This document shows, one piece after another, positions 1 through 12,893 of a stretch of 12,893 bases of DNA. The notes under the pieces are model-generated. The model did no database searches, was not told the origin of the DNA, and saw only the letters and a list, made by a program, of their open reading frames with translations. The DNA lies in IMG/VR virus record IMGVR_UViG_2617270988_000017, one strand, 5' to 3'. Source of the DNA: a virus. Lineage: Duplodnaviria; Heunggongvirae; Uroviricota; Caudoviricetes. Position numbers and translations under genes: made by a program. Position 1 is the stretch's first letter. Each line of letters begins with the position of its first letter.

Positions 1-1461
1 ATGAAAAAATTACTGCATCTTTTTTTCCCGCTCTCGCTGCGGGTACGTTTTCTGTTAGCAACGGCAGCAGTAGTATTGGTGCTTTCGCTTGCCTACGGAA
101 TGGTTGCGCTGATCGGTTATAGCGTCAGTTTCGATAAAACCACGTTTCGGCTGTTACGTGGCGAGAGCAATCTGTTCTATACCCTTGCGAAGTGGGAAAA
201 CAATAAGTTGCATGTCGAGTTACCCGAAAATATCGACAAGCAAAGCCCCACCATGACGCTAATTTATGATGAGAACGGGCAGCTTTTATGGGCGCAACGT
301 GACGTGCCCTGGCTGATGAAGATGATCCAGCCTGACTGGCTGAAATCGAATGGTTTTCATGAAATTGAAGCGGATGTTAACGATACCAGCCTCTTGCTGA
401 GTGGAGATCATTCTATACAGCAACAGTTGCAGGAAGTGCGGGAAGATGATGACGACGCGGAGATGACCCACTCGGTGGCGGTAAACGTCTACCCGGCAAC
501 ATCGCGGATGCCAAAGTTAACCATTGTGGTGGTGGATACCATTCCGGTGGAGCTAAAAAGTTCCTATATGGTCTGGAGCTGGTTTATCTATGTGCTCTCA
601 GCCAATCTGCTGTTAGTGATCCCGCTGCTGTGGGTCGCCGCCTGGTGGAGTTTACGCCCCATCGAAGCCCTGGCAAAAGAAGTCCGCGAACTGGAAGAAC
701 ATAACCGCGAATTGCTCAATCCAGCCACAACGCGAGAACTGACCAGTCTGGTACGAAACCTGAACCGACTGTTAAAAAGTGAACGCGAACGTTACGACAA
801 ATATCGTACGACGCTCACCGACCTGACCCATAGTCTGAAAACGCCACTGGCGGTGCTGCAAAGTACGCTGCGTTCTCTGCGTAGTGAGAAGATGAGCGTC
901 AGTGATGCTGAGCCGGTAATGCTGGAGCAAATCAGCCGCATTTCACAGCAAATTGGCTACTACCTGCATCGTGCCAGTATGCGCGGCGGGACATTGCTTA
1001 GCCGCGAGCTGCATCCGGTCGCCCCACTGCTGGACAATCTCACCTCGGCGCTGAACAAAGTGTATCAACGCAAAGGGGTCAATATCTCTCTCGATATTTC
1101 GCCAGAGATCAGCTTTGTCGGTGAGCAGAACGATTTTGTCGAGGTGATGGGCAACGTGCTGGATAATGCCTGTAAATATTGCCTCGAGTTTGTCGAAATA
1201 TCTGCAAGGCAAACAGACGAGCATCTCTATATTGTGGTCGAGGATGATGGCCCCGGTATTCCCTTAAGCAAGCGAGAGGTCATTTTCGACCGTGGTCAAC
1301 GGGTTGATACTTTACGCCCTGGGCAAGGTGTAGGGCTGGCGGTAGCCCGCGAAATCACCGAGCAGTATGAGGGTAAAATCGTCGCCGGAGAGAGCATGCT
1401 GGGCGGTGCGCGGATGGAGGTGATTTTTGGTCGCCAGCATTCTGCGCCGAAAGATGAATAA
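1..1461 (+). CDS. phoQ: Sensor histidine kinase PhoQ of the PhoPQ two-component system, complete
   Basis: The 486-aa translation reads as E. coli PhoQ essentially end to end from memory (MKKLL...[15 protein letters not shown]; periplasmic acidic patch EDDDDAEM; H-box [12 protein letters not shown]; C-terminal [12 protein letters not shown]). ATG at 1, TAA at 1459-1461. Confidence 0.97.
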
Positions 1462-1971
1462 ATATGTCCTTTTATCACCACAGCAAGGCAACCAATTGAT
1501 TTAATTAAACAACTCACACTGCAAAAAGTGCTAAAAACAGCAAATTGACTACACCATTAACTACACCGTTCGGTGCACTGTATGAAACAACGTTGAACAA
1601 ATAGACACAAGAAATATACAGGCGGGTAATCTTTCCAGGGGGAAGCGCACCAATTCATGAGGGGCGTTAATGTCGATATGGGGATCCCCATAACGGGGCT
1701 ACCAGATTTTTTTTCCGGTTAACTGTTAATCAGGCTGGTGGGCTTTACCTGTTCGGTAGGTGTTATGATTATCGTAATACCTTTCCCCCAATGGGGTAAA
1801 AGCTCCAACCGTAACGATGTTCGTTATGGTTGCCTTGATGGTCTGAGTGGTCATTTTGACCATTCAGCCAATGACCTTAATCAGAATTTTTCGCTAAAAA
1901 ATGACGTTGGCCACGTCATCCGGAAAGCACAAAATCACGTCGATTTTTAATGAACGGTTAAACCGTCTTTT

Positions 1972-2008
1972 TGTCACGGTGTGTCACTGGTTGTCACTCT
2001 CCGTCACG
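1972..2008. repeat. Four GTCAC pentamers in perfect 10-bp phasing (putative protein-binding array)
   Basis: GTCAC occurs at 1973-1977, 1983-1987, 1993-1997 and 2003-2007, so all copies sit on one helical face. A palindrome ACGGTT-A-AACCGT lies just upstream at 1953-1965. Function is inferred. Confidence 0.4.
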
Positions 2009-2096
2009 ATTGAGGTGGTGGACATTCTGCCCGACCGCGCATTTTTGCGCTATCGGGAATATCAAACAGTTACCGCGCCGACTTCCTCAAATTGAG

Positions 2097-2237
2097 GTTT
2101 CCGAAAATATCAGCGGGTTAGCGATTAAGCTGACGAGTAATTAAACTGCGAAAATTTCGTAGTTTGTGACTATCTGAAAGATAGTCGGTTGTTCCGGCCT
2201 CAGCCGTTGGCTGTTTCCGAAAATATCAGTAGGTTAG
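2097..2237. repeat. Pair of about 25-bp direct repeats (GTTTCCGAAAATATCAG + GGTTAG) 116 bp apart, flanking an 8-bp-stem palindrome
   Basis: Copy 1 is at 2097-2121 and copy 2 at 2213-2237, with a 17-bp identical core. Between them, 2168-2186 is GACTATCT-gaa-AGATAGTC. Possible arm or recombination-accessory sites near the element's left end; function not established. Confidence 0.4.
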
Positions 2238-2238
2238 G

Positions 2239-2262
2239 CCAAAGCTCAAAAATGAGCTTTGG
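2239..2262 (-). terminator. Hairpin 16 nt downstream of the 93-aa ORF, possible terminator or RNA-stabilising stem
   Basis: Perfect 10-bp stem CCAAAGCTCA / TGAGCTTTGG with a 4-nt loop. There is no clean U-tract after the stem on the minus strand, so it is a weak terminator call. Confidence 0.35.
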
Positions 2263-2277
2263 AACAATATCAACAAG

Positions 2278-2559
2278 TTACCGCCGTAACCGCTCCGGCT
2301 TCTTCCAGTGGTACGTAATTTTCTCCGTTTCCCGATACAGTGCCACGCGGCGATTGTAGGCCAGCATTTCAAGAACGCGGATCCGTATGTTGCGCATATC
2401 CACATCATTAAGCTGGATACCATCACGGCGCATCACCTCAGCAACAACACGCGCATAATTTTCGGCTGTCACGCTGTCCGGCTGCGTGGCCTGTTCGTCA
2501 GTCTGCTGGCTGATTCCACCAGCACGGCGGATTAATCCCAGTATTTCGGCTTCTGTCAT
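2278..2559 (-). CDS. Hypothetical protein, 93 aa
   Basis: ORF with ATG at 2559-2557 and TAA at 2280-2278. It lies just outside cos-L and reads away from it. No family recognised by eye. Confidence 0.55.
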   Translation of the reverse strand: MTEAEILGLIRRAGGISQQTDEQATQPDSVTAENYARVVAEVMRRDGIQLNDVDMRNIRIRVLEMLAYNRRVALYRETEKITYHWKKPERLRR

Positions 2560-2592
2560 TGTGCACCCATCGTTCTGATTGTCTGGTGTCGT

Positions 2593-2705
2593 CGGGTCCT
2601 TCCTGGAATTATGGACCCGTTACGGGGCGGCGACCTCGCGGTTTTTATCTGTTTATGAAAATTTTCCGGCAAAAGTCAGATCCGTTCTTCTTCTCTGTAA
2701 CAGAC
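2593..2705 (+). other. Lambda-type cos site, left copy (cos-L): cosQ-like, cosN, lambda-like cosB
   Basis: 2593-2636 reads CGGGTCCTTCCTGGAATTATGGACCCGTTACG followed by GGGCGGCGACCT, then CGCGGTTTTTATCTGTTTATGAAAATTTTCCGG...CCGTTCTTCTTC. This closely matches the lambda right-end/left-end junction as I remember it (...CGGGTCCTTTCCGGTGATCCGACAGGTTACG | GGGCGGCGACCTCGCGGGTTTTCGCTATTTATGAAAATTTTCCGG...CCGTTCTTCTTCG). The cosN 12-mer is at 2625-2636. Its packaging direction points into the 3' end of terS. Confidence 0.75.
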
Positions 2706-2723
2706 TGTTTAACAATGAAAATA

Positions 2724-2797
2724 TTAAAAAAAGAAAGGATCTGACACGAGGCATTTTAGCCAGAAAATGCCATTATCAGATCCTTTCTCATTTTTGT
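2724..2797. terminator. Bidirectional Rho-independent terminator downstream of terS
   Basis: Compound hairpin with outer stem AAAGGATCTGA (2734-2744) / TCAGATCCTTT (2776-2786) and inner stem GGCATTTT (2750-2757) / AAAATGCC (2764-2771). An A7 run at 2726-2732 gives a U-tract on the minus strand, and TTTTT at 2791-2795 gives one on the plus strand. Confidence 0.7.
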
Positions 2798-2815
2798 TCA
2801 ATAATTGCGCGTCTG

Positions 2816-3358
2816 TTACTCGCCTTTCTTCTGTAGCAACTTTTCCGGTACGTTTCCGGTTGTTTCTTTCAAGTAATCAGTCAGTATCTGTGGGAGGTTG
2901 TCGGCAACTCTGGCACTGGCATTACAGGCTTTAACCACTTCCCTTTTAAGCCTATCCAGCATGGCGGGGGTAATCTGTGGGAAGCTCCTTTGCATAGTAA
3001 GCGGGAGGCTGTCCATGATTGATGAAATCTGACTCGCCAGCTTTGAAAGCGCGTACAGGCAAAACTCAGTATCAATCACGTCACCGCGATCGCGCTCGTT
3101 TTTAAGTTCCTGCGCCTCCGCCTGTGCTGTCAGTAATCTGATCCTGACTCGTAAGAGTTCATCATCATCAATATCGCCTTTGTCGTTTGTAAGCTGGCTA
3201 ATTGCATTGTTAACCCTATTGTCTATCACGCTGGCAACATCATAAAACGCCTCACGGCCTTTACGTTCAACGGGAGTCACTCCCCACTTGTCGAACGCTG
3301 TCGCACTTACACGGCAGCTTTTCGCCATGTTTTTTTTGTTCATCAGGTGCGATTTCAT
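2816..3358 (-). CDS. Terminase small subunit, lambda Nu1 family
   Basis: The 180-aa product aligns along its length with lambda Nu1 recalled from memory: N-terminal winged-HTH region (NKKNMAKSCRVSATAFDKW vs NKKQLADIFGASIRTIQNW) and C-terminal region (LTAQAEAQELKNERDRGDVIDTEFCLYALSKLASQISSIMDSLPLTMQRSFP vs LTRAQADAQELKNARDSAEVVETAFCTFVLSRIAGEIASILDGLPLSVQRRFP). ATG at 3358-3356. Confidence 0.9.
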   Translation of the reverse strand: MKSHLMNKKNMAKSCRVSATAFDKWGVTPVERKGREAFYDVASVIDNRVNNAISQLTNDKGDIDDDELLRVRIRLLTAQAEAQELKNERDRGDVIDTEFCLYALSKLASQISSIMDSLPLTMQRSFPQITPAMLDRLKREVVKACNASARVADNLPQILTDYLKETTGNVPEKLLQKKGE

Positions 3359-3360
3359 TA

Positions 3361-3534
3361 ATACACCAACTTAATTACTGCTTCAGGTTGGTGTATTGTT
3401 TGCATCTTTCCCTTTTTATTCATAAAGATAGATCAAACAACGAAACCACCACCACCCCCCTGAAAAGGCTCATAAATAGCGAAAAACCGCTAGGTCGCCG
3501 CCCCGTAACGGGCCATAATTCCAGGAAGGACCCG
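3361..3534 (-). other. Lambda-type cos site, right copy (cos-R): cosQ-like, cosN, divergent cosB, directly upstream of terS
   Basis: 3493-3534 is the near-perfect reverse complement of 2593-2635 (42 of 43 positions, one 1-nt indel), with the cosN 12-mer AGGTCGCCGCCC at 3492-3503. On the minus strand it continues CGGTTTTTCGCTATTTATGA (lambda-like), then diverges (CAGGGGGGTGGTGGTGG) and ends in the 10-bp inverted repeat ATACACCAAC (3361-3370) / GTTGGTGTAT (3387-3396) beside the terS ATG. The cosN-cosB-terS order and orientation match lambda. Confidence 0.75.
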
Positions 3535-3535
3535 T

Positions 3536-3558
3536 AAAAAAGCCGGATTTCTCCGGCC
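3536..3558 (-). terminator. Rho-independent terminator ending the capsid operon
   Basis: Minus-strand stem GCCGGA-gaaa-TCCGGC followed by T6 (plus-strand A-run 3536-3540), 6 nt after the stop of the 137-aa ORF. Confidence 0.75.
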
Positions 3559-3563
3559 TTGTC

Positions 3564-3977
3564 TCAGATGGTTTTCAGTATGCGATCGATGTCGCCGTCA
3601 TCGCCCTGGTTTCTGCCATCGTATGCCATGCCAGCTGATACGGCTTGCGGGCTGTGCATGTCCATAAAGTTTTCAAAGGCTGCGGTAAGTTCCGGCGCAA
3701 CCTTCGGACGTTCCTGCTCTATGGTCATGCTAAGGATGCTTTTAGCCGTACCAACATCGATACAAGGCACGTTTGCCATTGCACGCAACAGCGGCTGATA
3801 GTCTTTATGCTCATGAAGCGCCATAATCGCATCAGCGCGCGGCTTGTCCTGCTCTTCCAGTTTGTTTAGTTGATATACGGCCTCATAGGTTGATAAACCT
3901 CTGTCAGCCATTGCCCGCGCTTCGACTTTAAATTTACTCGCCAGCGGTAGCGTCATGATGCTTTCATTCGTTGCCAT
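3564..3977 (-). CDS. Hypothetical protein, 137 aa, last gene of capsid operon
   Basis: ATG at 3977-3975 is preceded by a strong SD (AGGGGGAA) and follows the decoration-gene stop with a short gap. No family recognised. Inferred to be capsid-associated from context only. Confidence 0.65.
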   Translation of the reverse strand: MATNESIMTLPLASKFKVEARAMADRGLSTYEAVYQLNKLEEQDKPRADAIMALHEHKDYQPLLRAMANVPCIDVGTAKSILSMTIEQERPKVAPELTAAFENFMDMHSPQAVSAGMAYDGRNQGDDGDIDRILKTI

Positions 3978-3989
3978 CGTTCCCCCTGC

Positions 3990-4325
3990 TTATCGGGCCA
4001 GCGGCTGAACGGATACGCCGGAACCCGCAAAGGCGGCGCATTTTTTCGCATCGGTGTCGACGCTCTCAGGCCAGTTAACGGCGGCAATATTGAATATCCC
4101 CGTCTTGTAACACTGTGCTGATTTCTGCTTTGACGTGCCCACAGGGTACGAGGTCAGATAAACAGCCTTGCCAGATTCCTGACCATCCCACGGCTTAAAC
4201 TCGCCATTGTCTGCCAGCATCAGCGGGGTAAATTCCTGAATAACGCCAGCATCAGCGGCAAAATGTACCAACGTCGTGGATACCTGCTGACTGCCTGCAA
4301 ATAACTCAATGTATGGAGTGTCCAT
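3990..4325 (-). CDS. Head decoration protein, lambda gpD family
   Basis: The 111-aa product matches lambda gpD from memory ([23 protein letters not shown] vs [59 protein letters not shown] vs [36 protein letters not shown]). SD GGGGGGA upstream of the ATG at 4325. Confidence 0.85.
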   Translation of the reverse strand: [111 protein letters not shown]

Positions 4326-4337
4326 AGAATCCCCCCG

Positions 4338-5393
4338 TTAACCAATTTTGACGGTAACAAATTTGCGAATATCTGCCGGTACCGGCTGCGGTGCACTGTG
4401 TGTCTGCACGTACTCAATCGCCGGATCGCCGTCCTCAATCCAGTTTTTCGGGTAAAACATGTTTTGTGTTGCGCCCGTTCTTACCGCTTCCTGATCCATT
4501 ATCGCACCATAGGCCACCAGCCCTTTATTGTTGGTGTTACCCAGGACCAGCAAATCAGGCTCAAGGAAATATTTTTCGGTACCATCGCTGTCAGTGTATT
4601 TGCCGGAATAGACGATAAGGGCCAGATCACCAAGATAGCCTTTAAAGCTCACCACTTCGCCCAGGTTTTTACAGGCCAGTTCGGCGGCGGATTCTGAACC
4701 ACGGGAAAGATCGTACAGCTCACGGAATTTTTTAAAGCTGCCTAATGTGCGCCATACCTCAGCGCCCATAATCATGACGTTTGCGGGGCAACCAGCCTGA
4801 TCAGCATAAAGCTCGATGTCATAGATTGGGTCGTGCATGTCTTTATCCTGCTCGGACCATTTTTTACCCTTGGCCTGCTCTATGATGCAGTTTTCCGGTA
4901 TTTTCCAGTCGATTTCATAGCGTTCTATGCCTTCGCCCTCAATGATGTTTTTTCCGGTCGTTACCGCATTCACCGCCAGCCATTCCACGCGTGCCTTAAT
5001 GGCGTTTATCTGGCGGCGCATGTTGCCAGTAATCAGGCGCATACGGCGATAGGTAGGGTCGTTAAGCTGTGCCGGATCTTCTCCAGCCATGCGCATGATG
5101 GTTTTCGTTGGATCGATTTCGTGCTTTGGCTTCATGTAGCCAGGTTTGATTGTGCTGGTTTCGTACCCTTTATCGCGCTGAACCTGGCTACCCACCATAG
5201 GCGAACAAAACGCCGACATGGTGACTTCTTCAATGTCCAGGGTATCCAGCATGATGTTTTGCGTGCTGAATGTCGCCACGTTCGGGAAAAACAGCGTGGT
5301 AAACAGAGGGCTGAATTTAAAATCCGCAATATCCCCGCGATTCAGGTACATGAAAAGCTGGTTAGTGTTAAGTGCCGTTGCTTTGCCTGCCAT
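4338..5393 (-). CDS. Major capsid protein, lambda gpE family (HK97 fold)
   Basis: The 351-aa product aligns with lambda gpE over its full length by eye, at moderate identity (for example KPGYMKPKHEIDP vs TPGYVKPKHEVNP; DPTYRRMRLITGNMR vs DPAYRRRRIIMQNMR; LVLGNTNNKGLVAYGAI vs MVLGNTQARGLRTYGCI; YPKNWIEDGDPA vs YPKNWVTTGDPA). SD GGGGGTGA. The E-then-D gene order is the reverse of lambda. Confidence 0.92.
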   Translation of the reverse strand: MAGKATALNTNQLFMYLNRGDIADFKFSPLFTTLFFPNVATFSTQNIMLDTLDIEEVTMSAFCSPMVGSQVQRDKGYETSTIKPGYMKPKHEIDPTKTIMRMAGEDPAQLNDPTYRRMRLITGNMRRQINAIKARVEWLAVNAVTTGKNIIEGEGIERYEIDWKIPENCIIEQAKGKKWSEQDKDMHDPIYDIELYADQAGCPANVMIMGAEVWRTLGSFKKFRELYDLSRGSESAAELACKNLGEVVSFKGYLGDLALIVYSGKYTDSDGTEKYFLEPDLLVLGNTNNKGLVAYGAIMDQEAVRTGATQNMFYPKNWIEDGDPAIEYVQTHSAPQPVPADIRKFVTVKIG

Positions 5394-5599
5394 TATTCAC
5401 CCCCATAATTTTTATGCATCCCAAGCGCCGCAAGTAAATAAGAGCGTACAAGTGAACCTATCGACGGCTCCGGCGTCATCAGCGGATCCAGTCCAGCCGC
5501 AACGCCAGCTTCATAGTTTTTTTTGTGGCGCTGCTTGAGCACCTCCACGATTTCGGGGCTTATGTACACCGAAACACCGCCTTTTTTCTCTTCAGCCAT
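5393..5599 (-). CDS. Hypothetical protein, 68 aa, first gene of capsid operon
   Basis: In-frame ATG at 5599 (MAEEKKGG...) preceded by GAGG. Its stop overlaps the capsid-gene start (TAATG), implying translational coupling. The track's longer start at 5632 has no SD. Confidence 0.5.
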   Translation of the reverse strand: MAEEKKGGVSVYISPEIVEVLKQRHKKNYEAGVAAGLDPLMTPEPSIGSLVRSYLLAALGMHKNYGGE

Positions 5600-5649
5600 A
5601 GTAAGAAATTCCTCTTCGACTAAAAAAATCATAACTGGATGTTTATCCA

Positions 5650-5684
5650 GTCCTGATTATAATCAGAATTGCATTTTATGCAAT
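5650..5684 (-). promoter_or_regulatory. Candidate sigma70 promoter for the capsid operon, embedded in two palindromes
   Basis: Minus strand reads TTGCAT (5683-5678), a 16-nt spacer, then TATAAT (5661-5656). The -10 lies inside the perfect 14-bp palindrome CTGATTATAATCAG (5653-5666) and the -35 inside TTGCAT-ttt-ATGCAA (5669-5683). The first ORF starts about 55 nt downstream. Confidence 0.5.
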
Positions 5685-5764
5685 GATATTGAGTTATGTT
5701 GCAAATTATGAAATGATTATCCCGATCACGAACGCCAGTGCATCCAAAAACCTCATATGCAAAA

Positions 5765-5802
5765 GCCCGATAAGAACCCTCTGACCTTATCGGGCTTTTT
5801 TT
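5765..5802 (+). terminator. Rho-independent terminator, plus-strand orientation, probably bidirectional
   Basis: Stem GCCCGATAAG (5765-5774) / CTTATCGGGC (5786-5795) with a 11-nt loop, followed by T7 (5796-5802). There are four U on the minus-strand side. Confidence 0.6.
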
Positions 5803-5808
5803 GGGCGC

Positions 5809-5830
5809 AAAAAAGCCGGATTGCTCCGGC
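5809..5830 (-). terminator. Rho-independent terminator downstream of the 74-aa cassette ORF
   Basis: Minus-strand GCCGGA-gcaa-TCCGGC followed by T6. Same stem sequence as the terminators at 3536-3558 and 6172-6194. Confidence 0.7.
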
Positions 5831-5850
5831 TATGTGTGCTGTGTGCTGGC

Positions 5851-6075
5851 TCAGTCTCTGATCTCTTTCAGAAATTCTATCAATGCATCTATCTGTTCAG
5901 GATTTACCGCCAGCATTTCACCGGATAGAGCACATCTCACAAAACCATGCTGATCCTTTTCAATCAGTGCGCCCGTCTCCAGGAATGCGCGGTAATCATT
6001 GATGCTCATCGTCTCCATGTTGTCAGCATGGTATTTATCACGCTGTTTTAATATCTCATCAAATTTCATCGGCAT
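5851..6075 (-). CDS. Hypothetical protein, 74 aa, terminator-insulated single-gene cassette (moron-like)
   Basis: ATG at 6075 with SD AGAGGAA about 10 nt upstream. Intrinsic terminators lie both upstream (6172-6194) and downstream (5809-5830, 5765-5802). No family recognised. Confidence 0.6.
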   Translation of the reverse strand: MPMKFDEILKQRDKYHADNMETMSINDYRAFLETGALIEKDQHGFVRCALSGEMLAVNPEQIDALIEFLKEIRD

Positions 6076-6171
6076 TGTTTTTTTCCTCTGTTGTGTCTGT
6101 TTGTTTCAGATAGTAACTATGCCTGACCGTGACGAAAACCCGGTAATGCGCCATACCGTTTCAACTGGTGC

Positions 6172-6194
6172 AAAAAAAGCCGGATTTCTCCGGC
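6172..6194 (-). terminator. Rho-independent terminator ending the replication/regulatory operon
   Basis: Minus-strand GCCGGA-gaaa-TCCGGC followed by T7 (plus-strand A-run 6172-6178), 8 nt after the perC-like stop. Confidence 0.75.
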
Positions 6195-6201
6195 TGTTTG
6201 A

Positions 6202-6474
6202 TTAGCTGTCCTGGTAATTGCGCCATATTTCATCACCAGCACCATCTATACCCATTTCGGCATAAGTGCGATCGACTGCCTTTTTCAGGTCTCCGAAATT
6301 ATCCGGCGGCTCCGGTGCCCTCTGTGCCTTCCTTGAACATTCCAGCCGTCGCATCGTGATGTGATGCCGTTCCTTGTCTGTCTCCACCAGCTGCATGACT
6401 TCACCCCATCGCGCCGCCGCCCTCCGGTAAAAGCCTTTCGCCTCCAGTTCCTCCGCTATGCGGTCATGTACCAT
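6202..6474 (-). CDS. PerC-family transcriptional activator-like protein, 90 aa
   Basis: Start MVHDRIAEELEAKGFYRRAAARWGEVM carries the PerC/Pch-type N-terminal motif as I recall it. ATG at 6474 has a strong SD (GAGGGGGTGA). The track's longer version overlaps ssb and is rejected. Confidence 0.65.
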   Translation of the reverse strand: MVHDRIAEELEAKGFYRRAAARWGEVMQLVETDKERHHITMRRLECSRKAQRAPEPPDNFGDLKKAVDRTYAEMGIDGAGDEIWRNYQDS

Positions 6475-6484
6475 CGTCACCCCC

Positions 6485-6895
6485 TCAGAACGAAATATCA
6501 TCACCGTAAGAGTCATCGCCTCCCGCTGGTGGCTGATTACCCTGTGTGCCTGTGGTTTTGCGTCTGTTCCCGCCTGGACGTGCCGCGCGGGCACTGATTA
6601 CGCTGTCTGCGATAACCTGCCAGCCCTGCCGCGTTTCTCCGTTCTGTCCGGTCCACTGGCTTACCTGCATCGTGCCGGATACGCTGGCAACATCGCCTTT
6701 TTGATGTTTAGCCAGGAAGTCGGCCTGTTTGCCAAATGCGATGACCGATAACCATAACGTCGCCTGTCCGTCCTGTGCCTGGCTGCATGGCAAAGATACC
6801 GCCATACGCGCCAGCGTCATCGGTGTGCCCTTGCTGGTCTGTTTTACCTGCGGGTCGTCCACCAGCCGCCCGTAAGCGGCTATCTGTGCCGTCAT
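6485..6895 (-). CDS. ssb: Single-stranded DNA-binding protein
   Basis: 136 aa with an OB-fold-like N-terminal region, a Gly/Pro/Gln-rich linker (GTQGNQPPAGGDDSYG) and an acidic C-terminal tip DDISF resembling the SSB DDDIPF tail. The start overlaps the upstream stop (ATGA). Confidence 0.85.
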   Translation of the reverse strand: MTAQIAAYGRLVDDPQVKQTSKGTPMTLARMAVSLPCSQAQDGQATLWLSVIAFGKQADFLAKHQKGDVASVSGTMQVSQWTGQNGETRQGWQVIADSVISARAARPGGNRRKTTGTQGNQPPAGGDDSYGDDISF

Positions 6896-7143
6896 AATTC
6901 CACCTCTCCGGTTTTAACGTTGATGGTTGTTACCTGTTCCGCTTCGGCAATCTCCCGTTCTGTCAGCGTGGCAAAGTTTGCCGCCGCCGTGGTCATGAAT
7001 GCGCTTATCAGGTCGGGATGTTCCTTCGCGTATCCTTCCCGCGTGTGGCGGTCTATCGTTCTGATTGCCACCTTTAAGGTGTGCTCAGTCATGTCTAACG
7101 CTTTATATTTTGGCTCTGTTCTGTCTCTGCGTTTTTGGGTCAT
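6892..7143 (-). CDS. Hypothetical protein, 83 aa, translationally coupled to ssb
   Basis: In-frame ATG at 7143 (MTQKRRDR...) with SD GAGAGG. The track start at 7173 is GTG and sits in the iteron array. The stop overlaps the ssb start. Confidence 0.5.
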   Translation of the reverse strand: MTQKRRDRTEPKYKALDMTEHTLKVAIRTIDRHTREGYAKEHPDLISAFMTTAAANFATLTEREIAEAEQVTTINVKTGEVEL

Positions 7144-7152
7144 TTCTCGCAA

Positions 7153-7348
7153 CCTCTCACTTTTTCGCCTCACTTTTTCAAGCGTCTCACTTCGTCGCAG
7201 TTGGGATTTTCGGTTTTTCTATGTGTGTGTTTCATAAGTATTTTTTTACCCCTCACTTTTGAGGATGTATACAGGTCGAAAAGTGAGGGAGAGCGGGCTA
7301 ATTTTGGCCCTCTTTCTATCCCCCTCGCTTTTGCTCCTCACTTTTATA
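7153..7348. repeat. Iteron array, putative origin of replication of the element
   Basis: CTCACTTTT-type repeats at 7156-7165, 7169-7178, 7186-7192, 7252-7260, 7278-7289 (inverted), 7323-7333 (variant CTCGCTTTT) and 7336-7347, plus an AT-rich stretch at 7230-7248. It lies immediately 3' of the rep gene, as is typical of satellite and plasmid origins. Confidence 0.55.
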
Positions 7349-8743
7349 GCGGCGCTACATCATCCCCATCGATACGAATAACCCCATCTTTTTCCAGCTT
7401 GTACAGCCAGCGCCGGAAGTTTTTCATTTCATACCCCAGCTTTTTCATGTCATCACGTAACAGCGGGATCGTGCACTTGTCGCCGTTCTGTGTGCGTGAA
7501 CGGATGCACCCCCATAGCGCGGTATGGTTTTCCGTCTTGTTCCCTGCCTCCTCGATGCGCTCCAGTTCAACAGGAGGGCGCGGATCATCCACCACCACCA
7601 GCGACGTGATTAATTCACCGTCAGCGTCGGTAAAAAGCTCCACCACGCGTAAGTCATATGCGGCTTCTTTGAGTTCCTCCGCGTCCTTCATTTTGGTGCA
7701 TGAGATAACCAGCGCTTCGCTTCCTGCGTCCTCCCTGCGTATCCGGTATTCAGCATCCAGCGAAGCACGAAATGCACTGGAACCGCGCGCGCCTTTCGTC
7801 TCATCCTTGCCGGAATGGTGAACCACCAGCACCGTGGCCCCTGTGCGTCGTTTCAGTTCGTCACAACCACGGATAAACGCCCCATATCACGGGAATCATT
7901 TTCATCATTCCCACCAAAGCAACGCGCCAGCGTATCCAGAATAATCATGCGTACAGGTTTACCCGTTTCCCGCTCCACCTGACGGGCAGCGATAACCATT
8001 TCATCAACATCAAGCGGGGCAGCCGGAAAGATGGGGCGGTTTACCAGATACAGATTTTTCACCTGCTCATCGTGCACAACCTCCCAGGCTTTTACACGAC
8101 GCGGAACACCTATACCGCCTTCACCAACCACATAGAGAACCGCACCATGTGCAACCCTGCGGCCTCCCCACTGGCGACCAGTGGCAACATGGCACGCCCA
8201 CGATCCGGCAAGGAATGATTTATAGGACCCGCTAGCCCCGTATATGCTGCATAGCGATACCGCCGGAATAATCCCCTTAACCACGTAATCCAGTTGCGTG
8301 TCGTATCCGGTAGATCCAACGCTCATCGGTAGCGTGGTTTTTCGCTGGTGGTTTTTTTCTTCCGCCGGCTCTTTCCCGCGCACCCGTTCCAGGTATTCGC
8401 GCCAGTTCTCCCGCATATGGCTGTGCATCCCTTCGGGGTAATAATTCGCATCAGTTACACCCGCCGCCGCCAGCTTGTGCGCAATGGCATTAATATTTGA
8501 TGGCCTGATGTGGCCTGCCTTGTACAGCCGGACACAATAGCGCCCCTCGTCGATGATTCTCAGGTCTGCCAGTTCATCCAGTTGATCATCAGCCAGCACA
8601 ACGGGAGGCACATTATCGCCAGCCAGTCGCCCGTCCTGTTCCTGCCACTGTTTCGCATGTGCCCAGGCATCACTACCCGCAAAAATAATGACTTCGGTCA
8701 TCTTGTCGTAAGGCTGTTTTTTTAAGTTCGGTGCGCTTTTCAT
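7344..8743 (-). pseudogene. Replication protein (primase/helicase-like, RepA-type P-loop ATPase with C-terminal winged-helix-like tail); reading frame interrupted near 7880
   Basis: The N-terminal ORF (8743..7853) has a Walker-A-like GASGSYKS and ILDTLARCFGG. The C-terminal ORF (7832..7344) continues in another frame with VVHHSGKDETKGARGSSAFRASLD, typical of RepA/AAA_25-like ATPases. The total span is 1400 nt, not a multiple of 3. The frames join if the G4 run (plus-strand CCCC 7880-7883) is G5, giving ...DSRDMGAFIRGCDELKRRTGATVLVVHH... Confidence 0.7.
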
Positions 8744-9039
8744 TTCTTGCCCCTGAATCCGTTAACCATGGTTTTCAGCTTCTGGATGTTTGCCCGTGCC
8801 CTGGCGTTGCTGGTGGGCACGTTATGCGGCGCGGTCTGTACCAGAGAAAAATCACGCCGGAACTGATAAACAGGCATCACGCAATCATATTCGTAACCTT
8901 CACGGCGGTAAGTTACGCACCGTCCCGCCACGCCCTTAATCATTACCGTGCCGCCGTACTGGTCGCGGTAAATATCACCGCGCGTAAATTTAGGGTGAGT
9001 GTTGCCACTGGCAGTTAAGCCAGAATATTTAAGTTTCAT
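8740..9039 (-). CDS. Hypothetical basic protein, 99 aa
   Basis: ATG at 9039 with GGAG upstream. The stop overlaps the rep start (ATGA). No family recognised. Confidence 0.55.
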   Translation of the reverse strand: MKLKYSGLTASGNTHPKFTRGDIYRDQYGGTVMIKGVAGRCVTYRREGYEYDCVMPVYQFRRDFSLVQTAPHNVPTSNARARANIQKLKTMVNGFRGKK

Positions 9040-9044
9040 TATTT

Positions 9045-9278
9045 TTATTCTCCGGTGTGCTGTTCGTTATATCTGTCGTGCAATGTCTCTATTTCCTGCA
9101 ACTCATTTATTACAGGCTCAAGAAGCGTTATTAATGCCGTGACAATTCTTGATTTTTGTTTGTCGCGTTCATTGTCGCCAAGTGTTTCAAGCCATATGCG
9201 CAATATTTCGTACATACCTTCAGCGTAAGCAAGGGCACTAAATGCGCGGTCTATTGTTTCGTGGTAAATATCACGCAT
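9045..9278 (-). CDS. Hypothetical small acidic protein, 77 aa
   Basis: ATG at 9278 with SD GGGGA. Net acidic and helical-looking. Tightly packed with neighbours (1-5 nt gaps). Confidence 0.55.
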   Translation of the reverse strand: MRDIYHETIDRAFSALAYAEGMYEILRIWLETLGDNERDKQKSRIVTALITLLEPVINELQEIETLHDRYNEQHTGE

Positions 9279-9279
9279 A

Positions 9280-9501
9280 TTAATCCCCGTCCGTTGTTTT
9301 TCTTAAAACAGCTTCTGTCACGAAATCAGCATAGTTAGCGGCAATATCAAGAATATTTAGCCCTGTATCTCTGTGCTCATCAGTGCAAAGAAAGAAAAAA
9401 GCCACCCGCATAATTTCAGATATTGACGAAAGCGCATCAGCCGCATCATCAGGAACGCCGGAAAATTCTTGTTTCAGGGAATTAAAACGATCATCACGCA
9501 T
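9280..9501 (-). CDS. Hypothetical small acidic protein, 73 aa
   Basis: ATG at 9501-9499 (MRDDRFNSLKQEFSGVPDDAADAL...). The track's longer N-terminus is rejected. It shares a PD-AADAL motif with the upstream 73-aa ORF. Confidence 0.55.
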   Translation of the reverse strand: MRDDRFNSLKQEFSGVPDDAADALSSISEIMRVAFFFLCTDEHRDTGLNILDIAANYADFVTEAVLRKTTDGD

Positions 9502-9715
9502 AACCCCCCCCATTTTCACAATCAGCAACAAGAATATTTTTAGCGTCATTCAGCGACCGCGTTGCGATGTATCGGATACATTCCAGGGCGAACTGTGTCC
9601 GGTCTTTCTGTTCTTCTCCCTGCGCAAGCTCTGCAGTGCATTCAATATCGATAAGCGCGTGCATCAGCGTAGTGAGCGCGTCGGCTGCTGCGTCCGGTGT
9701 GGTTTTATTGCACAT
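9494..9715 (-). CDS. Hypothetical small acidic protein, 73 aa
   Basis: ATG at 9715-9713 (MCNKTTPDAAADAL...) preceded by a strong SD (AGGAGGTG). It ends in NGGGYA encoded by a G8 run and overlaps the next start. Confidence 0.6.
   Translation of the reverse strand: MCNKTTPDAAADALTTLMHALIDIECTAELAQGEEQKDRTQFALECIRYIATRSLNDAKNILVADCENGGGYA
9504..9511. repeat. C8/G8 homopolymer at a gene junction
   Basis: Eight consecutive C on the plus strand (G on the coding strand). It encodes the GGG tail of the upstream ORF and lies 2 nt before the ATG of the downstream ORF. Confidence 0.9.
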
Positions 9716-9896
9716 GGCACACCTCCTGACGAATACGGGCGGCGAATACAGCAACACAACCGGACGGGCAACGGCTACGCGCTTCGCGTTCCGTCCAGGC
9801 GGTTACGTGGATGATTTGATGTTCTGACGCGCCAAAGATGATAAAGCGCCAGAGAAAGGCGGTTTGAGAATGTACAAGGGTAGGGATAGTAGCCAT
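9705..9896 (-). CDS. Small protein, 63 aa; possibly Icd-like (host cell division inhibitor family), tentative
   Basis: ATG at 9896 with SD GAGGAGG 8 nt upstream, TAA at 9707-9705. The WRF and FAARIRQ motifs resemble what I recall of Icd-like small proteins from P4-like islands, but this is unverified. A diverged tandem copy lies 369 bp upstream. Confidence 0.5.
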   Translation of the reverse strand: MATIPTLVHSQTAFLWRFIIFGASEHQIIHVTAWTEREARSRCPSGCVAVFAARIRQEVCHVQ

Positions 9897-10056
9897 GTTG
9901 GCAGCCTCCTCAGTGTGGTTAAGATAACCGCCACCGGAAACGCCAATTTCGCTGGTGGCGGACTGTACAGGGTTGGCGTAACCGGACACTGAAGAAACCG
10001 GCGCGGATTGCTCCGCCCCCGTACAGCCCACCATTGATAAGGTGTGACTATGCGGC

Positions 10057-10082
10057 ACAAAAAAACACGCGGGGCGCGTGTT
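10057..10082 (-). terminator. Strong Rho-independent terminator signature inside the upstream tandem copy
   Basis: Minus strand reads AACACGCG-CCC-CGCGTGTT followed by TTTTTTT (plus-strand A7 at 10059-10065). It is GC-rich with an uninterrupted U-tract. Confidence 0.65.
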
Positions 10083-10265
10083 ATGCGCTTCAGTTTTGCC
10101 CAGGACGCCAATCCCGGCACCCGTTTTATGAGGTGCGCGGGAATCATAGCTATTTTCGACACTGGCGATCAACTGGTTTTTTTCTCCGATATTCAGGGCC
10201 AGAAAACGCCACACAAAGGCCGTTTGTGTGTGTACAAGGTGTGGTATATGATTTACGGCAACCAT
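10083..10265 (-). pseudogene. Degenerate tandem paralogue of the 63-aa ORF (or translated leader); no in-frame stop before the terminator
   Basis: ATG at 10265 with SD AGGAG. The first 30 or so codons are homologous to the downstream ORF (PHLVHTQTAFVWRFLAL vs PTLVHSQTAFLWRFIIF) with synonymous and conservative changes. The frame then runs through the terminator without a stop, and a C-terminal-like motif (RVFLCRI vs AVFAARI) appears only in another frame. Confidence 0.35.
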
Positions 10266-10293
10266 AACGGCTCCTAGTTTACGTTGTTGGTTA

Positions 10294-10328
10294 GACGCCC
10301 CGTATGTGTTCCCAGCACTGCGGGGCGT
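10294..10328. promoter_or_regulatory. 8-bp inverted repeat ACGCCCCG / CGGGGCGT with a 19-bp spacer in the divergent control region
   Basis: Arms at 10294-10301 and 10321-10328, in the 5' leader of the minus-strand small-ORF operon and upstream of the RHH promoter. Confidence 0.4.
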
Positions 10329-10353
10329 TGATTTTTGTGTAATGGCAAGTACA

Positions 10354-10395
10354 ATGGTAATTACCATGTAGGTATAGTAATGAAGGGTAATTACC
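10354..10395. promoter_or_regulatory. Two GGTAATTACC operator-like palindromes at the RHH gene promoter
   Basis: Perfect 14-bp palindrome ATGGTAATTACCAT at 10354-10367 and GGTAATTACC at 10386-10395, centres 30 bp apart. The second abuts the RHH ATG. A TATAGT -10-like hexamer is at 10373-10378. Confidence 0.6.
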
Positions 10396-10569
10396 ATGTC
10401 AACACCATTAGAAAAACGTTCGCCTCCATACCAAATGCGATTACCGGAAGACTTCAGAGCGCAGCTAGAAGAAGCAGCTAAGGCCGATGGCGACACATCT
10501 TTAGCCACTTGGATTAAACGCGTTCTCCGCAAAGAATTACAGCAACGCGGCATAGAACCCAAAGGATAA
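10396..10569 (+). CDS. Ribbon-helix-helix (Arc/CopG-like) DNA-binding protein, 57 aa
   Basis: ATG at 10396, TAA at 10567-10569. The product MSTPLEKRSPPYQMRLPEDFRAQLEEAAKADGDTSLATWIKRVLRKEL has the typical RHH pattern (beta-strand YQMRLP, then two helices). It is absent from the ORF track because it is under 60 aa. Confidence 0.7.
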   Translation: MSTPLEKRSPPYQMRLPEDFRAQLEEAAKADGDTSLATWIKRVLRKELQQRGIEPKG

Positions 10570-10611
10570 AAACTATCAGCGCCGTGGTGTGAGGTATTAC
10601 GGCGCATTGCT

Positions 10612-10800
10612 ATGCAGGACAACACAATGACCGATAAAGAATTGACCAAAACATTATCACCGGCACGGAAAAGACGGCGCAGAAAGATAGAGCATGAATC
10701 AGAAAGATTCGCGCCATGTGCTTTTGCCCTTGAGCAATTCCTTAAAGAGTACAGGGAAAAGCGCTCATTGCAGGTATGGCAACGAACTGAACCAGACTGA
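10612..10800 (+). CDS. Hypothetical small basic protein, 62 aa, downstream of the RHH gene
   Basis: ATG at 10612 (alternative ATG at 10627 with AGGA upstream). It contains an ARKRRRRK basic patch. The coding call is weak. Confidence 0.4.
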   Translation: MQDNTMTDKELTKTLSPARKRRRRKIEHESERFAPCAFALEQFLKEYREKRSLQVWQRTEPD

Positions 10801-10894
10801 TTGCATTGCCCACCAGCCTGATAGCGGCTATCATCCCCGTGCTTATGTTTGGGATCACATACACATAAGGCGCAGCGGGTTAATTGTTCAGAAA

Positions 10895-10922
10895 GGCGGC
10901 TCCATATCGGGGCCGCTTTTTT
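10895..10922 (+). terminator. Rho-independent terminator between convergent alpA and the RHH operon
   Basis: Stem GGCGGCTCC (10895-10903) / GGGGCCGC (10909-10916) followed by T6 (10917-10922). Confidence 0.65.
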
Positions 10923-10948
10923 CGTGTTTGTCATATCTGTGATACCCG

Positions 10949-11155
10949 TTAAGCAGCCGTTCCGCGTGCTTCCTCTTCGCGTTCTTTCTGCCAGGACAAC
11001 ACATCATCCTCATACCATCCGCGACGGCGTAAACCAACGCGAAAACCCTGCGGAAATTCTCCGGCGTTGATCATGCTTTGCAGCGTGCTGTCTGCCTTGA
11101 TGTGGATAATTTTTTTTACTTCCTGGCGAAAGATAATTTTTCTGATTGCTTCCAT
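10949..11155 (-). CDS. alpA: AlpA-family phage transcriptional regulator / excisionase-like protein
   Basis: The 68-aa product matches the AlpA pattern (IIHIKADSTLQSMINAGEFPQGFRVGLRRRGWYEDDVLSWQ vs CP4-57 AlpA ...TGMARATIYDWLNPKSPRYDATFPKKRMLGVKSVGWIEAEIDEWL). ATG at 11155. Confidence 0.8.
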   Translation of the reverse strand: MEAIRKIIFRQEVKKIIHIKADSTLQSMINAGEFPQGFRVGLRRRGWYEDDVLSWQKEREEEARGTAA

Positions 11156-11288
11156 CGTGATTTACCTTGTGAATCCGGTGTATTCCGGTGACAAATACGG
11201 TAAATCATCGGATATGGGTAAAAACAGTTCCCACCGTTTTTAAACGGTATACACCGTTTTTTATATTGATGATTTGAAATGGAATTAT

Positions 11289-11311
11289 AAAAAAAGCGGC
11301 ATTTCTGCCGC
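11289..11311 (-). terminator. Rho-independent terminator after the int-proximal small ORF
   Basis: Minus-strand stem GCGGCA-gaaa-TGCCGC followed by T7 (plus-strand A-run 11289-11295). Confidence 0.7.
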
Positions 11312-11322
11312 TTCCAGGATTG

Positions 11323-11574
11323 TTACCGCCATTTTTTGGGCCTGCCTCCGATCTTCATAGATGCCGGACGTACGACCTTATCAATACTTACCGCCAGATT
11401 TCTGGAAGCGCCACGGGATACCAGAAAATCTACTACCTGTTTTTTTGATGGGGCCGTCGTTCTGTCCTCCGGATCGTAGGTTGACCAAAATTCATGCTGA
11501 ACCATCAGGGCCAGTTGCAGCCCGTCGCAATTGCATCTGATATTTTTTTGCATCTTAACGGTTTCATGTTTCAC
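11323..11574 (-). CDS. Hypothetical small basic protein adjacent to integrase, start uncertain
   Basis: The track start at 11574 is GTG. The first in-frame ATG is at 11553 and lacks a clear SD. The basic C-terminus reads IGGRPKKWR. No family recognised. Confidence 0.45.
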   Translation of the reverse strand: MKHETVKMQKNIRCNCDGLQLALMVQHEFWSTYDPEDRTTAPSKKQVVDFLVSRGASRNLAVSIDKVVRPASMKIGGRPKKWR

Positions 11575-11651
11575 GGCCTTGTCGTTAAATTTGATGCAAT
11601 TATACGACGGTTTTACATGGTTTTCGTAGTTTTTACTGGTTTTCTGTACAG

Positions 11652-12893
11652 CTACACGGCTCGGATACCCCTTTTACCACTGGCGAGGGTTACGCCCGTC
11701 GCCGCAGCCTCGACAAATTCGCCCCACCAGCGCATCAGCACGATGCGTTTTTCTATGTAGTTGCTCCGGTTGTATGCCCGTCTAACTTCGTTGGTGTCGA
11801 CGTGGGCAAGTGCCGCCTCTATTACGTCCGGCTCGAATCCTTCCTCGTTCGCTGCTGTGCTGAATATGGCGCGTAATCCATGAGACACCAGCACGCCAGC
11901 GAATCCCATACGCCGCAATGCTGCGTTAGCTGTCTGGCTGTTCATCGGCTGCTGTGGGTCTTTCAGACTTGGGAAAACGTAATTGCGGTGGTGGCTGATT
12001 GGTTTCATGGCCTCCAGCACCGCCATAGCCTGACCGGAAAGCGGGATAACGTGATCCCTGCGCATCTTCATGCGTCCGGCAGGTATCGTCCATTGCTTCG
12101 CGTCCAGGTTGATTTCATCCCACCGCGTTGATGACGCTTCGGCGGGACGGGTTACGGTCAGTAACTGCCATTCAATCAGTAATCTGGTCTGCCGTTCTGT
12201 TGCCGATACTGATAAAGCCTGCATAAGCTCGGGCAGCTGTTCGGGGCGGATTGTTGGCATATGTTTTTTTACAGGTGAGGGAAACGCCTTACGCACATTC
12301 ATAGCCGGATTGGCATCAATCAGCCCACTGTTGGCGGCGTAATCCATTACCTCATTAACGCGCTGTAAAACCCGCTTGAGTGTTTCCAGGTTGCCGCGCT
12401 CCTTGATGGGGGTAAGCACTTCAACGAACCTTCGGGCGGTGAGGGTATCTATTGGCGTGTTGCCGATGAACGGGAATACATATTTATCCAGCGAACGCCA
12501 GATGTCTTTAATCGTGTTGGGGGCCAGATTCTGGCTGATTTTCACCTGGTACCATGCCGCCGCCACATTTTCGAACGTGTTCCCTTGTCTTCGGGCCTCT
12601 GTCTCTCTTTTTTGCCTCTCGTGGTCCTGCGGGTCAGTTCCGGCACTGATTAACGTCCTGTACTCGCTACGGCGTTTTCTGGCATCAGCCAGGGAAACAT
12701 CTTCAAGCGATCCAAAACTCAGCAATATTCTTTTTTTGTCCGATGGTCGGTAGTAGGAAAATCTCCAGAGTTTTGATCCAGACGGTTTGACCAGGAGAAA
12801 AAGCCCTCCGCCGTCCTGCAGGGTGTACTCCTTTTGCGCTGGTCTGGCTGCTTTGATCTGCACTGTGGTTAATGGGTGTGTTTTTCTCGCCAT
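11652..12893 (-). CDS. int: Site-specific tyrosine integrase, P4 family
   Basis: 413 aa with an N-terminal arm-binding-type region (KEYTLQDGGGLFLLVKPSGSKLWRFSYY) and a C-terminal catalytic domain (HGLRAIFST...RAYNRSNY). The ATG is at the last three bases of the window, so the upstream region and att site are outside it. Confidence 0.95.
   Translation of the reverse strand: MARKTHPLTTVQIKAARPAQKEYTLQDGGGLFLLVKPSGSKLWRFSYYRPSDKKRILLSFGSLEDVSLADARKRRSEYRTLISAGTDPQDHERQKRETEARRQGNTFENVAAAWYQVKISQNLAPNTIKDIWRSLDKYVFPFIGNTPIDTLTARRFVEVLTPIKERGNLETLKRVLQRVNEVMDYAANSGLIDANPAMNVRKAFPSPVKKHMPTIRPEQLPELMQALSVSATERQTRLLIEWQLLTVTRPAEASSTRWDEINLDAKQWTIPAGRMKMRRDHVIPLSGQAMAVLEAMKPISHHRNYVFPSLKDPQQPMNSQTANAALRRMGFAGVLVSHGLRAIFSTAANEEGFEPDVIEAALAHVDTNEVRRAYNRSNYIEKRIVLMRWWGEFVEAAATGVTLASGKRGIRAV

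Follow-up and report, generated by a model that had tools for sequence, protein, structure and literature searches.

What is an element that carries genes for a phage capsid shell and a small terminase subunit (TerS), and none for a portal, a tail or lysis, doing beside phoQ? The question is raised by a 12,893-nucleotide stretch of DNA from a virus record (Caudoviricetes; IMGVR_UViG_2617270988_000017), referred to here at its full length as the window. The original prediction, made from the letters of the window alone, took the element to be a cos-type satellite of a lambdoid phage that builds its own small capsid and stands between classical phage-inducible chromosomal islands (PICIs) and capsid-forming PICIs (cf-PICIs). 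We find instead that the element is very probably a classical Gram-negative cos-type PICI, namely, a TerS-carrying variant of the EcCICFT073/O-island 51 family. That family is already known and experimentally studied, and the element is not a new intermediate class. The particular copy in the window is probably crippled or misassembled, because its helicase gene is frameshifted and the end that carries its integrase is mismatched to the site at which it lies.

The gene content by itself indicates a satellite. Genes were called from a listing of open reading frames (ORFs) together with Pfam and PHROGs scans, and RNAs were called with Rfam at the gathering score. The content listed by the original prediction (integrase, alpA, helicase, ssb, PerC, gpE-like and gpD-like proteins, Nu1-like TerS, and cos) is real by Pfam and PHROGs, with a weak call for AlpA. 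The profile search also bore out what had been predicted missing, as no ORF on either strand of the window matched a portal, protease, large terminase subunit (TerL), tail or lysis family. Thus, the element is a cos-type satellite that cannot form a virion alone, and dependence on a lambdoid helper for portal, protease, TerL and tails is supported. Of the features expected of a PICI, an AlpA-like helix-turn-helix (HTH) protein near int, genes in one direction and a capsid homologue with TerS and cos were seen, and units measure 11.0 to 11.4 kb in genomes that hold both ends. No other virion or lysis genes accompany them, and the size falls within the range of about 10 to 20 kb. The features expected of a cf-PICI were not seen, as no ORF had a portal, protease, adaptor/connector, HNH or TerL family match.

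Which PICI it is follows from locus and identity. The roxA|phoQ locus and the gene order are the same as in EcCICFT073, and identity to EcCICFT073 is 96.3% for the capsid protein (c1499), 97.3% for the decoration protein (c1500), 97.1% for p137, 97.1% for the single-strand DNA-binding protein (SSB), 91.4% for p93, 89.9% for RgdR and 68% for p68. The phoQ-adjacent element of O157:H7 is 97.8% identical in DNA over window positions 1-10922, and in the closed O157 genome it fills the phoQ-roxA interval with nothing else between. The O157 element is O-island 51, also called CP-933C or Sp7, between ycfD (roxA) and phoQ (PMC3378721). We considered SpLE2 as its name and set it aside, as the literature gives Sp7/CP-933C/OI-51; EcCIEDL933 was likewise set aside, being a separate island and the cf-PICI prototype. 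EcCICFT073, the Gram-negative PICI that serves as prototype (Fillol-Salom 2018, 2019), has a capsid homologue (c1499), a decoration homologue (c1500) and two cos sites that function (PMC6092414, 2018), and helper-induced excision, replication, high-frequency transfer and interference have been shown for it (PMC6092414, PMC6739421). Its transfer relies on the helper's TerS, and some E. coli PICIs encode a TerS of their own (PMC6092414). Five core PICI components have been named, an integrase, a regulator, a primase-replicase, a capsid-morphogenesis gene and TerS, and for classical Proteobacterial PICIs the core layout already in print joins a capsid homologue to TerS (or Rpp) and cos (PMC10085698). 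Of 29 reference Gram-negative PICIs, 21 carry a capsid gene, which is dispensable for transfer (PMC10111431). With a standard layout, a common capsid gene and EcCICFT073 at the same locus, the proposal that the element is a new step from classical to capsid-forming PICIs is not supported.

The same evidence bears on whether the element is a degraded lambdoid cryptic prophage, with the capsid and terS genes as functionless leftovers. History and homology might suggest so, as O-island 51/CP-933C was annotated as a 14.93-kb cryptic prophage (PMC3378721) and the window encodes homologues of lambda E, D, Nu3 and Nu1. We regard this reading as highly improbable. Hundreds of genomes have this compact layout, located at several attachment (att) sites, and the order E-D-Nu3-like-cos-terS-cos differs from the lambda order. 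Genes for lambdoid immunity (CI/Cro), O/P replication, Q, lysis, terminase A, portal and tail were all absent from the window by Pfam and PHROGs. Moreover, the orthologous EcCICFT073 is induced and transferred by a helper (PMC6092414). The original prediction had also allowed that the capsid and terS genes might be remnants; ratios of nonsynonymous to synonymous substitution (dN/dS) of ~0.13 for capsid and 0.12-0.28 for terS indicate purifying selection on both. Finally, the orthologous elements in complete genomes (O157, CFT073) are directly flanked by roxA and phoQ, and no portal, TerL or tail genes were found beside them in the closed O157 or CFT073 genomes. As these elements end at roxA, the element is not part of an ordinary lambdoid prophage, in agreement with the original prediction.

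How the element directs packaging of its own DNA can be read from the end nearest phoQ:

2278-2559, minus strand: p93, a conserved 93-aa protein, c1504 of EcCICFT073 by position (phrog_1561, 1e-55)
2593-2800, plus strand: first (left) cos site, of lambda-type layout, with cosN at 2625-2636
2816-3358, minus strand: Nu1-family TerS, 180 aa (Pfam Phage_Nu1, 2.4e-23)
3459-3534, minus strand: second cos site, inverted relative to the first, with cosN at 3492-3503

The cos site of the original prediction is present in two copies, as the exact lambda cosN (GGGCGGCGACCT) occurs at 2625-2636 on the plus strand and at 3492-3503 on the minus strand; about one match would be expected by chance at up to two mismatches. 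An inverted repeat of ~77 bp brackets terS (2593-2669 and 3459-3534), each arm holding one cosN, and by alignment the cosN-proximal sequence of both sites is common to lambda and the CFT073 helper prophage/phage 4. To the right of the left cosN lie three repeats that we read as R boxes, R3 at 2676-2698, R2 at 2728-2751 (inverted) and R1 at 2774-2797, with R2 and R1 forming an inverted repeat. Their core is CAGATCC, where that of lambda is CGTTTCC. We note that the left cos keeps the lambda R3-I1-R2-R1 layout over 2670-2800. Of 5426 complete E. coli genomes, 479 hold the cos-terS-cos cassette at a coverage of at least 80%.

TerS is a packaging-specificity gene of the element's own, as had been predicted, and a full-length member of the Nu1 family. 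Over ~90% of its length (residues 6-166) it is 46% identical to N15 gp1 and 35% identical to lambda Nu1. It occupies the position of rppA (c1503) in EcCICFT073, and RppA attaches to the helper's TerS and steers it to the cosB of the PICI (PMC6739421). Packaging redirection of the Rpp type was considered and rejected here, because what lies between the cos sites is a Nu1 homologue of full length, unlike RppA or RppC. Blastp detected no similarity between TerS and RppA, and none was seen to the RppC chains of PDB. Sequence searches of PDB with p93, p137 and TerS gave chance-level matches only, and an Rpp-like identity for any of the three has no support from them.

Next to the packaging genes lies the capsid module:

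3564-3977, minus strand: p137, Nu3-like scaffold domain, 137 aa, probably c1501 of EcCICFT073 (phrog_53)
3990-4325, minus strand: gpD-like head decoration protein, orthologue of c1500 (Pfam HDPD, 6e-17)
4338-5393, minus strand: gpE-like major capsid protein, orthologue of c1499 (Pfam Phage_cap_E, 2e-49, full length)
5393-5599, minus strand: p68, a conserved 68-aa protein at the head of the capsid operon (phrog_3255; annotated in O157 and CFT073)

The module comprises gpE-like, gpD-like and Nu3-like genes, and the scaffold-domain gene, which the original prediction overlooked, appears to be previously unrecognised. Its product p137 matches phrog_53 (head maturation protease) at profile positions 496-567 of 583 (6e-9), and over residues 49-131 it shares 38.6% identity with the C/Nu3 gene of the lambdoid phage PhiR12 at its extreme C-terminus (~80 residues). 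Blastp gave no match between p137 and lambda C/Nu3, and the evidence for a Nu3 link comes from the PHROG profile and from lambdoid phages other than lambda. Public databases label p137 a "head-tail preconnector/connector protein." The decoration protein is 34% identical to lambda D, with dN/dS of 0.06-0.30, and the capsid protein is 43% identical to lambda E. Among 50,697 phage records, the best match to the capsid gene was 47.5% identical (47.0% for a single-piece, near-full-length match). Because the capsid gene is full length, has a dN/dS of ~0.13 and is at most 47.5% identical to phage records, it belongs to an old, maintained PICI lineage and is not a decaying remnant. A single base separates each of the capsid, decoration, p137 and p68 genes from its O157 counterpart.

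Whether the module builds a shell is a further matter. The three genes, one of them a newly recognised scaffold-domain homologue, might be a working kit from which PICI procapsids are made on the portal of the natural helper, perhaps small ones that hold one or two units, which would place the element between classical and capsid-forming PICIs. The conservation of the capsid gene speaks for such a role, and so does a feature of the published tests. The marked islands used in 2018 were c1501::tetA or c1499::cat (PMC6092414), and by consecutive numbering (c1493 for RgdR, c1499 for capsid, c1500 for decoration) we infer that c1501 is p137. The capsid module was thus probably not intact in those tests, and the finding of no small capsid may lack an intact-module basis; a shell-building role could have been overlooked because every marked EcCICFT073 island tested had a lesion in c1499 or c1501. 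We found no published phenotype for the gpE-like, gpD-like or Nu3-like genes. If the role were real, TerS-type islands would supply both shell and packaging specificity, a functional step towards cf-PICIs.

We nonetheless consider a shell-building role unlikely. In EcCICFT073, whose module is 96-97% identical, packaged DNA was of phage size only and the PICI monomer band was absent; loss of c1499 or c1500 left interference and transfer unaffected, and transfer of the c1499::cat island with phage 80 reached as much as 10^6 per ml (PMC6092414). Moreover, the unit between att cores is 10,977 bp in O157, 11,219 bp in CFT073 and 11,416 bp in L004, and a tetramer of such units amounts to 90-94% of the lambda genome. 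A unit of 11.0 to 11.4 kb fits the lambda head as a tetramer, and therefore a small capsid is not needed. The small capsid of the original prediction is not supported.

The remainder of the element, a classical PICI as argued above, encodes replication, regulation and integration:

5851-6075, minus strand: p74, 74 aa, of unknown function, followed by an intrinsic terminator at 5814-5831
6202-6474, minus strand: PerC-family regulator (Pfam PerC, 1e-42), followed by a terminator at 6178-6195
6485-6895, minus strand: SSB (Pfam, PHROG)
6892-7143, minus strand: p83 (ORF listing)
7134-7345: probable replication origin with three iterons, adjoining the 3' end of the helicase gene
7344-8743, minus strand: AAA_25 RepA-type helicase gene, frameshifted (Pfam/PHROG)
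8740-9039, minus strand: RgdR, 99 aa (Pfam DUF4222, 2e-23)
9045-9549, minus strand: small conserved ORFs of 77 aa and 89 aa (as annotated by RefSeq in the identical O26 sequence)
9705-9896, minus strand: Icd-like gene (RefSeq annotation of the identical O26 sequence)
9951-10038, minus strand: C4-type antisense RNA (Rfam, 77.6 bits, above the gathering score)
10060-10136, minus strand: isrK-like RNA (Rfam, 66 bits, above the gathering score)
10949-11155, minus strand: AlpA-like HTH regulator/excisionase (Pfam, 0.0028; PHROG excisionase/regulator, 2.5e-6)
11652-12893, minus strand: P4-type tyrosine integrase of tRNA-Pro(proL) specificity, mismatched to the roxA/phoQ site

The replication gene of the original prediction was found in part: it is a RepA-type helicase, but a C5 run near 7875-7879 has lost 1 bp, and this splits it into ORFs of 296 aa and 162 aa, where the intact protein of O157, O26 and many other genomes has 466 aa. 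The same frameshift allele occurs in nine independent contigs of different sources and so is a lineage-inherited change and not a read error. Deletion of pri-rep lowered EcCICFT073 transfer ~100-fold. Immediately 3' of the helicase gene, at 7161-7345, lie three 17-bp iterons (TTTTnCnCCTCACTTTT) with ~84-bp spacing that are probably the replication origin, and their position agrees with the PICI rule that the origin lies 3' of the replication gene (PMC6092414).

Other parts of this half concern regulation. RgdR, known as ECs1581 and c1493, is a regulator of LEE (locus of enterocyte effacement) type III secretion and of motility (PMC3378721); the copy here retains the RGD motif and is 97% identical to that of O157. 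The AlpA-like call is weak, as the Pfam value of 0.0028 falls below the curated cut-off. The C4 and isrK RNAs lie upstream of the Icd-like gene, an arrangement that resembles a P1/P4-type antisense-RNA immunity module within a PICI. In the elements of CFT073 and O157, Rfam detected neither RNA at the gathering score, and the module is confined to the regulatory segment of proL type. A 409-aa ORF at 9705-10934 was discarded as spurious read-through of the RNA/Icd-like region. Near-identical minus-strand terminators, each a hairpin with a T run (GCCGGAGAAATCCGGC TTTTTT), follow p137 (3533-3562), p74 (5806-5835) and the PerC gene (6170-6199).

Where the element begins is set by the phoQ flank:

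1-1461, plus strand: phoQ (Pfam/PHROGs, ORF listing)
1548-1568: att core of the roxA/phoQ integration site (ACTACACCATTAACTACACCG), which flanks the elements of relatives
1569-2277: non-coding end region, whose ORFs lack a PHROG match

Two copies of the 21-mer ACTACACCATTAACTACACCG lie 10,977 bp apart around the O157 element, and it also borders the CFT073 and L004 elements. The window holds a single copy, at 1548. The true phoQ-side end of the element is the att core at 1548-1568 and not position 2278, where the original prediction had placed the start. All element genes lie on the minus strand, and only phoQ is on the plus strand by the ORF listing. The end region contains a 210-bp insertion relative to the O157 element (1868-2077) and a 25-bp direct repeat (GTTTCCGAAAATATCAG...) at 2097-2121 and 2213-2237, 116 bp apart, and portions of 1569-2277 are also present at the far end of the O26 proL element. 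A tRNA scan of the window found no tRNA. Promoter-like sites were no more numerous than in shuffled sequence, and no promoter is claimed.

The opposite end belongs to another kind of element. The original prediction called the element integrase-bounded; an integrase does lie at one end, but the boundary is doubtful, as that integrase has proL att specificity. It shares 100% DNA identity with the integrase of the tRNA-Pro(proL) PICI and 24% identity with the 409-aa integrase of the roxA/phoQ type. The window is 100% identical to part of the draft contig JNRU01000025.1 (GCA_000704845.1). Extension past 12893, as proposed earlier, reached an end of the wrong type: the contig runs on for 208 bp past int and stops at the boundary of the proL att, ~10 bp before the start of tRNA-Pro in O26, and not at a roxA/phoQ att. 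Positions 7000-8910 are essentially those of phoQ-type elements (zero differences from L004; from O157, only the frameshift base and a single-nucleotide polymorphism at 8564), and 8418-12893 is near-identical to the O26:H11 tRNA-Pro(proL) PICI except for 8766 and two further single bases. The switch point falls within 8767-8910, a 144-bp stretch in which the two element types coincide. The right third as a whole (8418-12893, plus L005 1-208) resembles the O26:H11 proL PICI and not the phoQ/roxA element.

We lean towards the view that the present copy is either an immobile, decaying remnant or an assembly chimera, in which a phoQ-side PICI and a co-resident proL-type PICI were joined through their shared replication module. 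A switch inside an identical stretch, an integrase 24% identical to the type that matches the site, a lone roxA/phoQ att core and a contig end at the proL att boundary are all consistent with this view. Moreover, L004 carries the same frameshifted element with the matching int409 beside roxA, and the draft contig L015 holds the reciprocal, implausible junction (roxA-int409...capsid307-narP), which would imply a deletion of ~1.1 Mb if real. The sister assembly L003 breaks with an N at 8765, the window as one contiguous stretch occurs in 0 of 5426 complete genomes, and the frameshift recurs in the nine contigs mentioned above. A true recombinant has arguments of its own. Module shuffling is common in these PICIs, and the closed O6:K2:H1 genome has a proL element with the same integrase and the capsid/TerS module. 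The terS and p93 genes are nearest to that element, nearly identical with two differences each, and the capsid genes are nearest to O157. One crossover with an incoming circular PICI would also give this junction within a tandem array. Between the two, we find an assembly chimera somewhat more likely.

Two observations accompany the junction. L003 is 99.99% identical over window positions 1-8765, has a single N there and then continues into the e14 pinE region at a hix/gix-like site (TTCTCCCAAACCAACGTTTATGAAAA), and the window has a weak palindrome at 8752-8785, at the L003 junction; the junction, at 9880-10010 of L003, may be an artefact of scaffolding or else an inversion mediated by Pin. 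The RgdR allele was tried as a discriminator between recombinant and chimera and dropped as not diagnostic, as it is widespread in PICI and cf-PICI contexts. The identical allele lies beside full cf-PICI modules and beside PICIs with Terminase_2 and an HK97-like capsid, at three att sites.

Several points weigh against assigning the element to a mobile, TerS-type branch of the EcCICFT073/O-island 51 family. Two concern the present copy: its helicase gene carries a frameshift, and no action of its integrase on the att at the phoQ side can be expected. Two concern cos: the left cosB with its R boxes sits at the 3' end of terS and is directed into the gene, the reverse of lambda, and the two sites are inverted, with the literature itself asking why some PICIs have two cos sites (PMC6739421). 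Finally, the TerS-encoding islands of IHE3034 and 18098 gave at most 110 transductants/ml, with helpers unidentified (PMC6092414), and the transfer evidence is that of EcCICFT073, which would extend to the TerS-type E. coli members by orthology only.

How an intact island of this type would spread can be proposed nonetheless. An induced lambdoid helper would turn on alpA, and AlpA would drive the single-direction PICI operon. Excision dependent on int would follow, and replication from the iteron origin 3' of the helicase gene would generate concatemers. Induction, excision and replication have been shown for EcCICFT073 in the literature and are carried over by orthology. Packaging would be cos-dependent and use the helper's terminase, as shown for the prototype. 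Judging from the sequence, the element's own Nu1-family TerS would bind the PICI-specific R boxes (CAGATCC) beside the lambda-identical cosN and recruit the helper's TerL, the equivalent in EcCICFT073 being Rpp and the helper's TerS. About four 11-kb units (~44-46 kb) would then be packaged into full-size helper heads, which in the prototype take up the DNA as multimers. We note that the three terminators split the "single-direction operon" into separate units.

What the element adds is chiefly annotation. The analysis rediscovers a described satellite family, and its main value is correct annotation, because many genomes still list them under cryptic prophage or hypothetical proteins. Two genes of the element, rgdR and perC, have links to the control of type III secretion, and therefore its mobility bears on the spread of virulence genes in enterohemorrhagic and enteropathogenic E. 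coli. The interest that remains lies in a conserved, selected capsid module with a scaffold-domain gene and in a Nu1-type TerS that would combine its own R boxes with the helper's TerL.

Other satellites share parts of this organization. Like the element, SaPIbov5 is a cos satellite that carries a homologue (Ccm) of its helper's major capsid protein. Ccm, however, diverts assembly towards small capsids and obstructs the helper, whereas deletions in the E. coli module had no such effect (PMC6092414), and the sequences of Ccm and of the E. coli capsid module are unrelated. P4 is alike in its P4-type integrase, AlpA-like regulator, C4/CI-type antisense RNA and icd-like gene, in its size of ~11 kb and in cos packaging by the helper's terminase. 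P4 differs in that its cos is of P2 type, where that of the window is of lambda type, and in having neither a capsid protein nor a TerS. Sid, Psu, Delta, Epsilon and alpha-primase had no Pfam or PHROG match in the window.

The cf-PICIs, represented by EcCIEDL933, share the int-alpA-rgdR-RepA-SSB-PerC half and also carry capsid-related genes. They encode an HK97-type capsid, S78 protease, portal, head-tail connectors, HNH, TerS and TerL and make small capsids of their own, whereas the element here has only the capsid homologue (gpE type) and TerS (Nu1 type), both of other families. Full cf-PICI modules were seen for comparison in L016-L020.

The closest relatives are the two islands at the same locus. 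O-island 51 of O157 has the same phoQ flank, TerS cassette, capsid module, rgdR and perC, and the capsid, decoration and p137 proteins differ by one residue each. It differs in that its helicase (466 aa) is intact and the 409-aa integrase beside roxA matches the site, in lacking the 210-bp insertion at 1868-2077 and in carrying another alpA-icd regulatory segment. EcCICFT073 has a 144-aa RppA between its cos sites, where the element here has the 180-aa Nu1-family TerS; its equivalent cos has CCGGACAT-like repeats in place of the CAGATCC boxes, and it encodes a 584-aa primase in place of the RepA-type helicase. The C4/isrK RNAs were not detected in EcCICFT073 at the Rfam gathering score, and the integrase here has another specificity. 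Nevertheless, the two share the roxA|phoQ att, the gene order, a unit of ~11 kb and two inverted lambda-type cosN around a specificity gene, and their RgdR, SSB, PerC, p68, capsid, decoration, p137 and p93 are orthologous.

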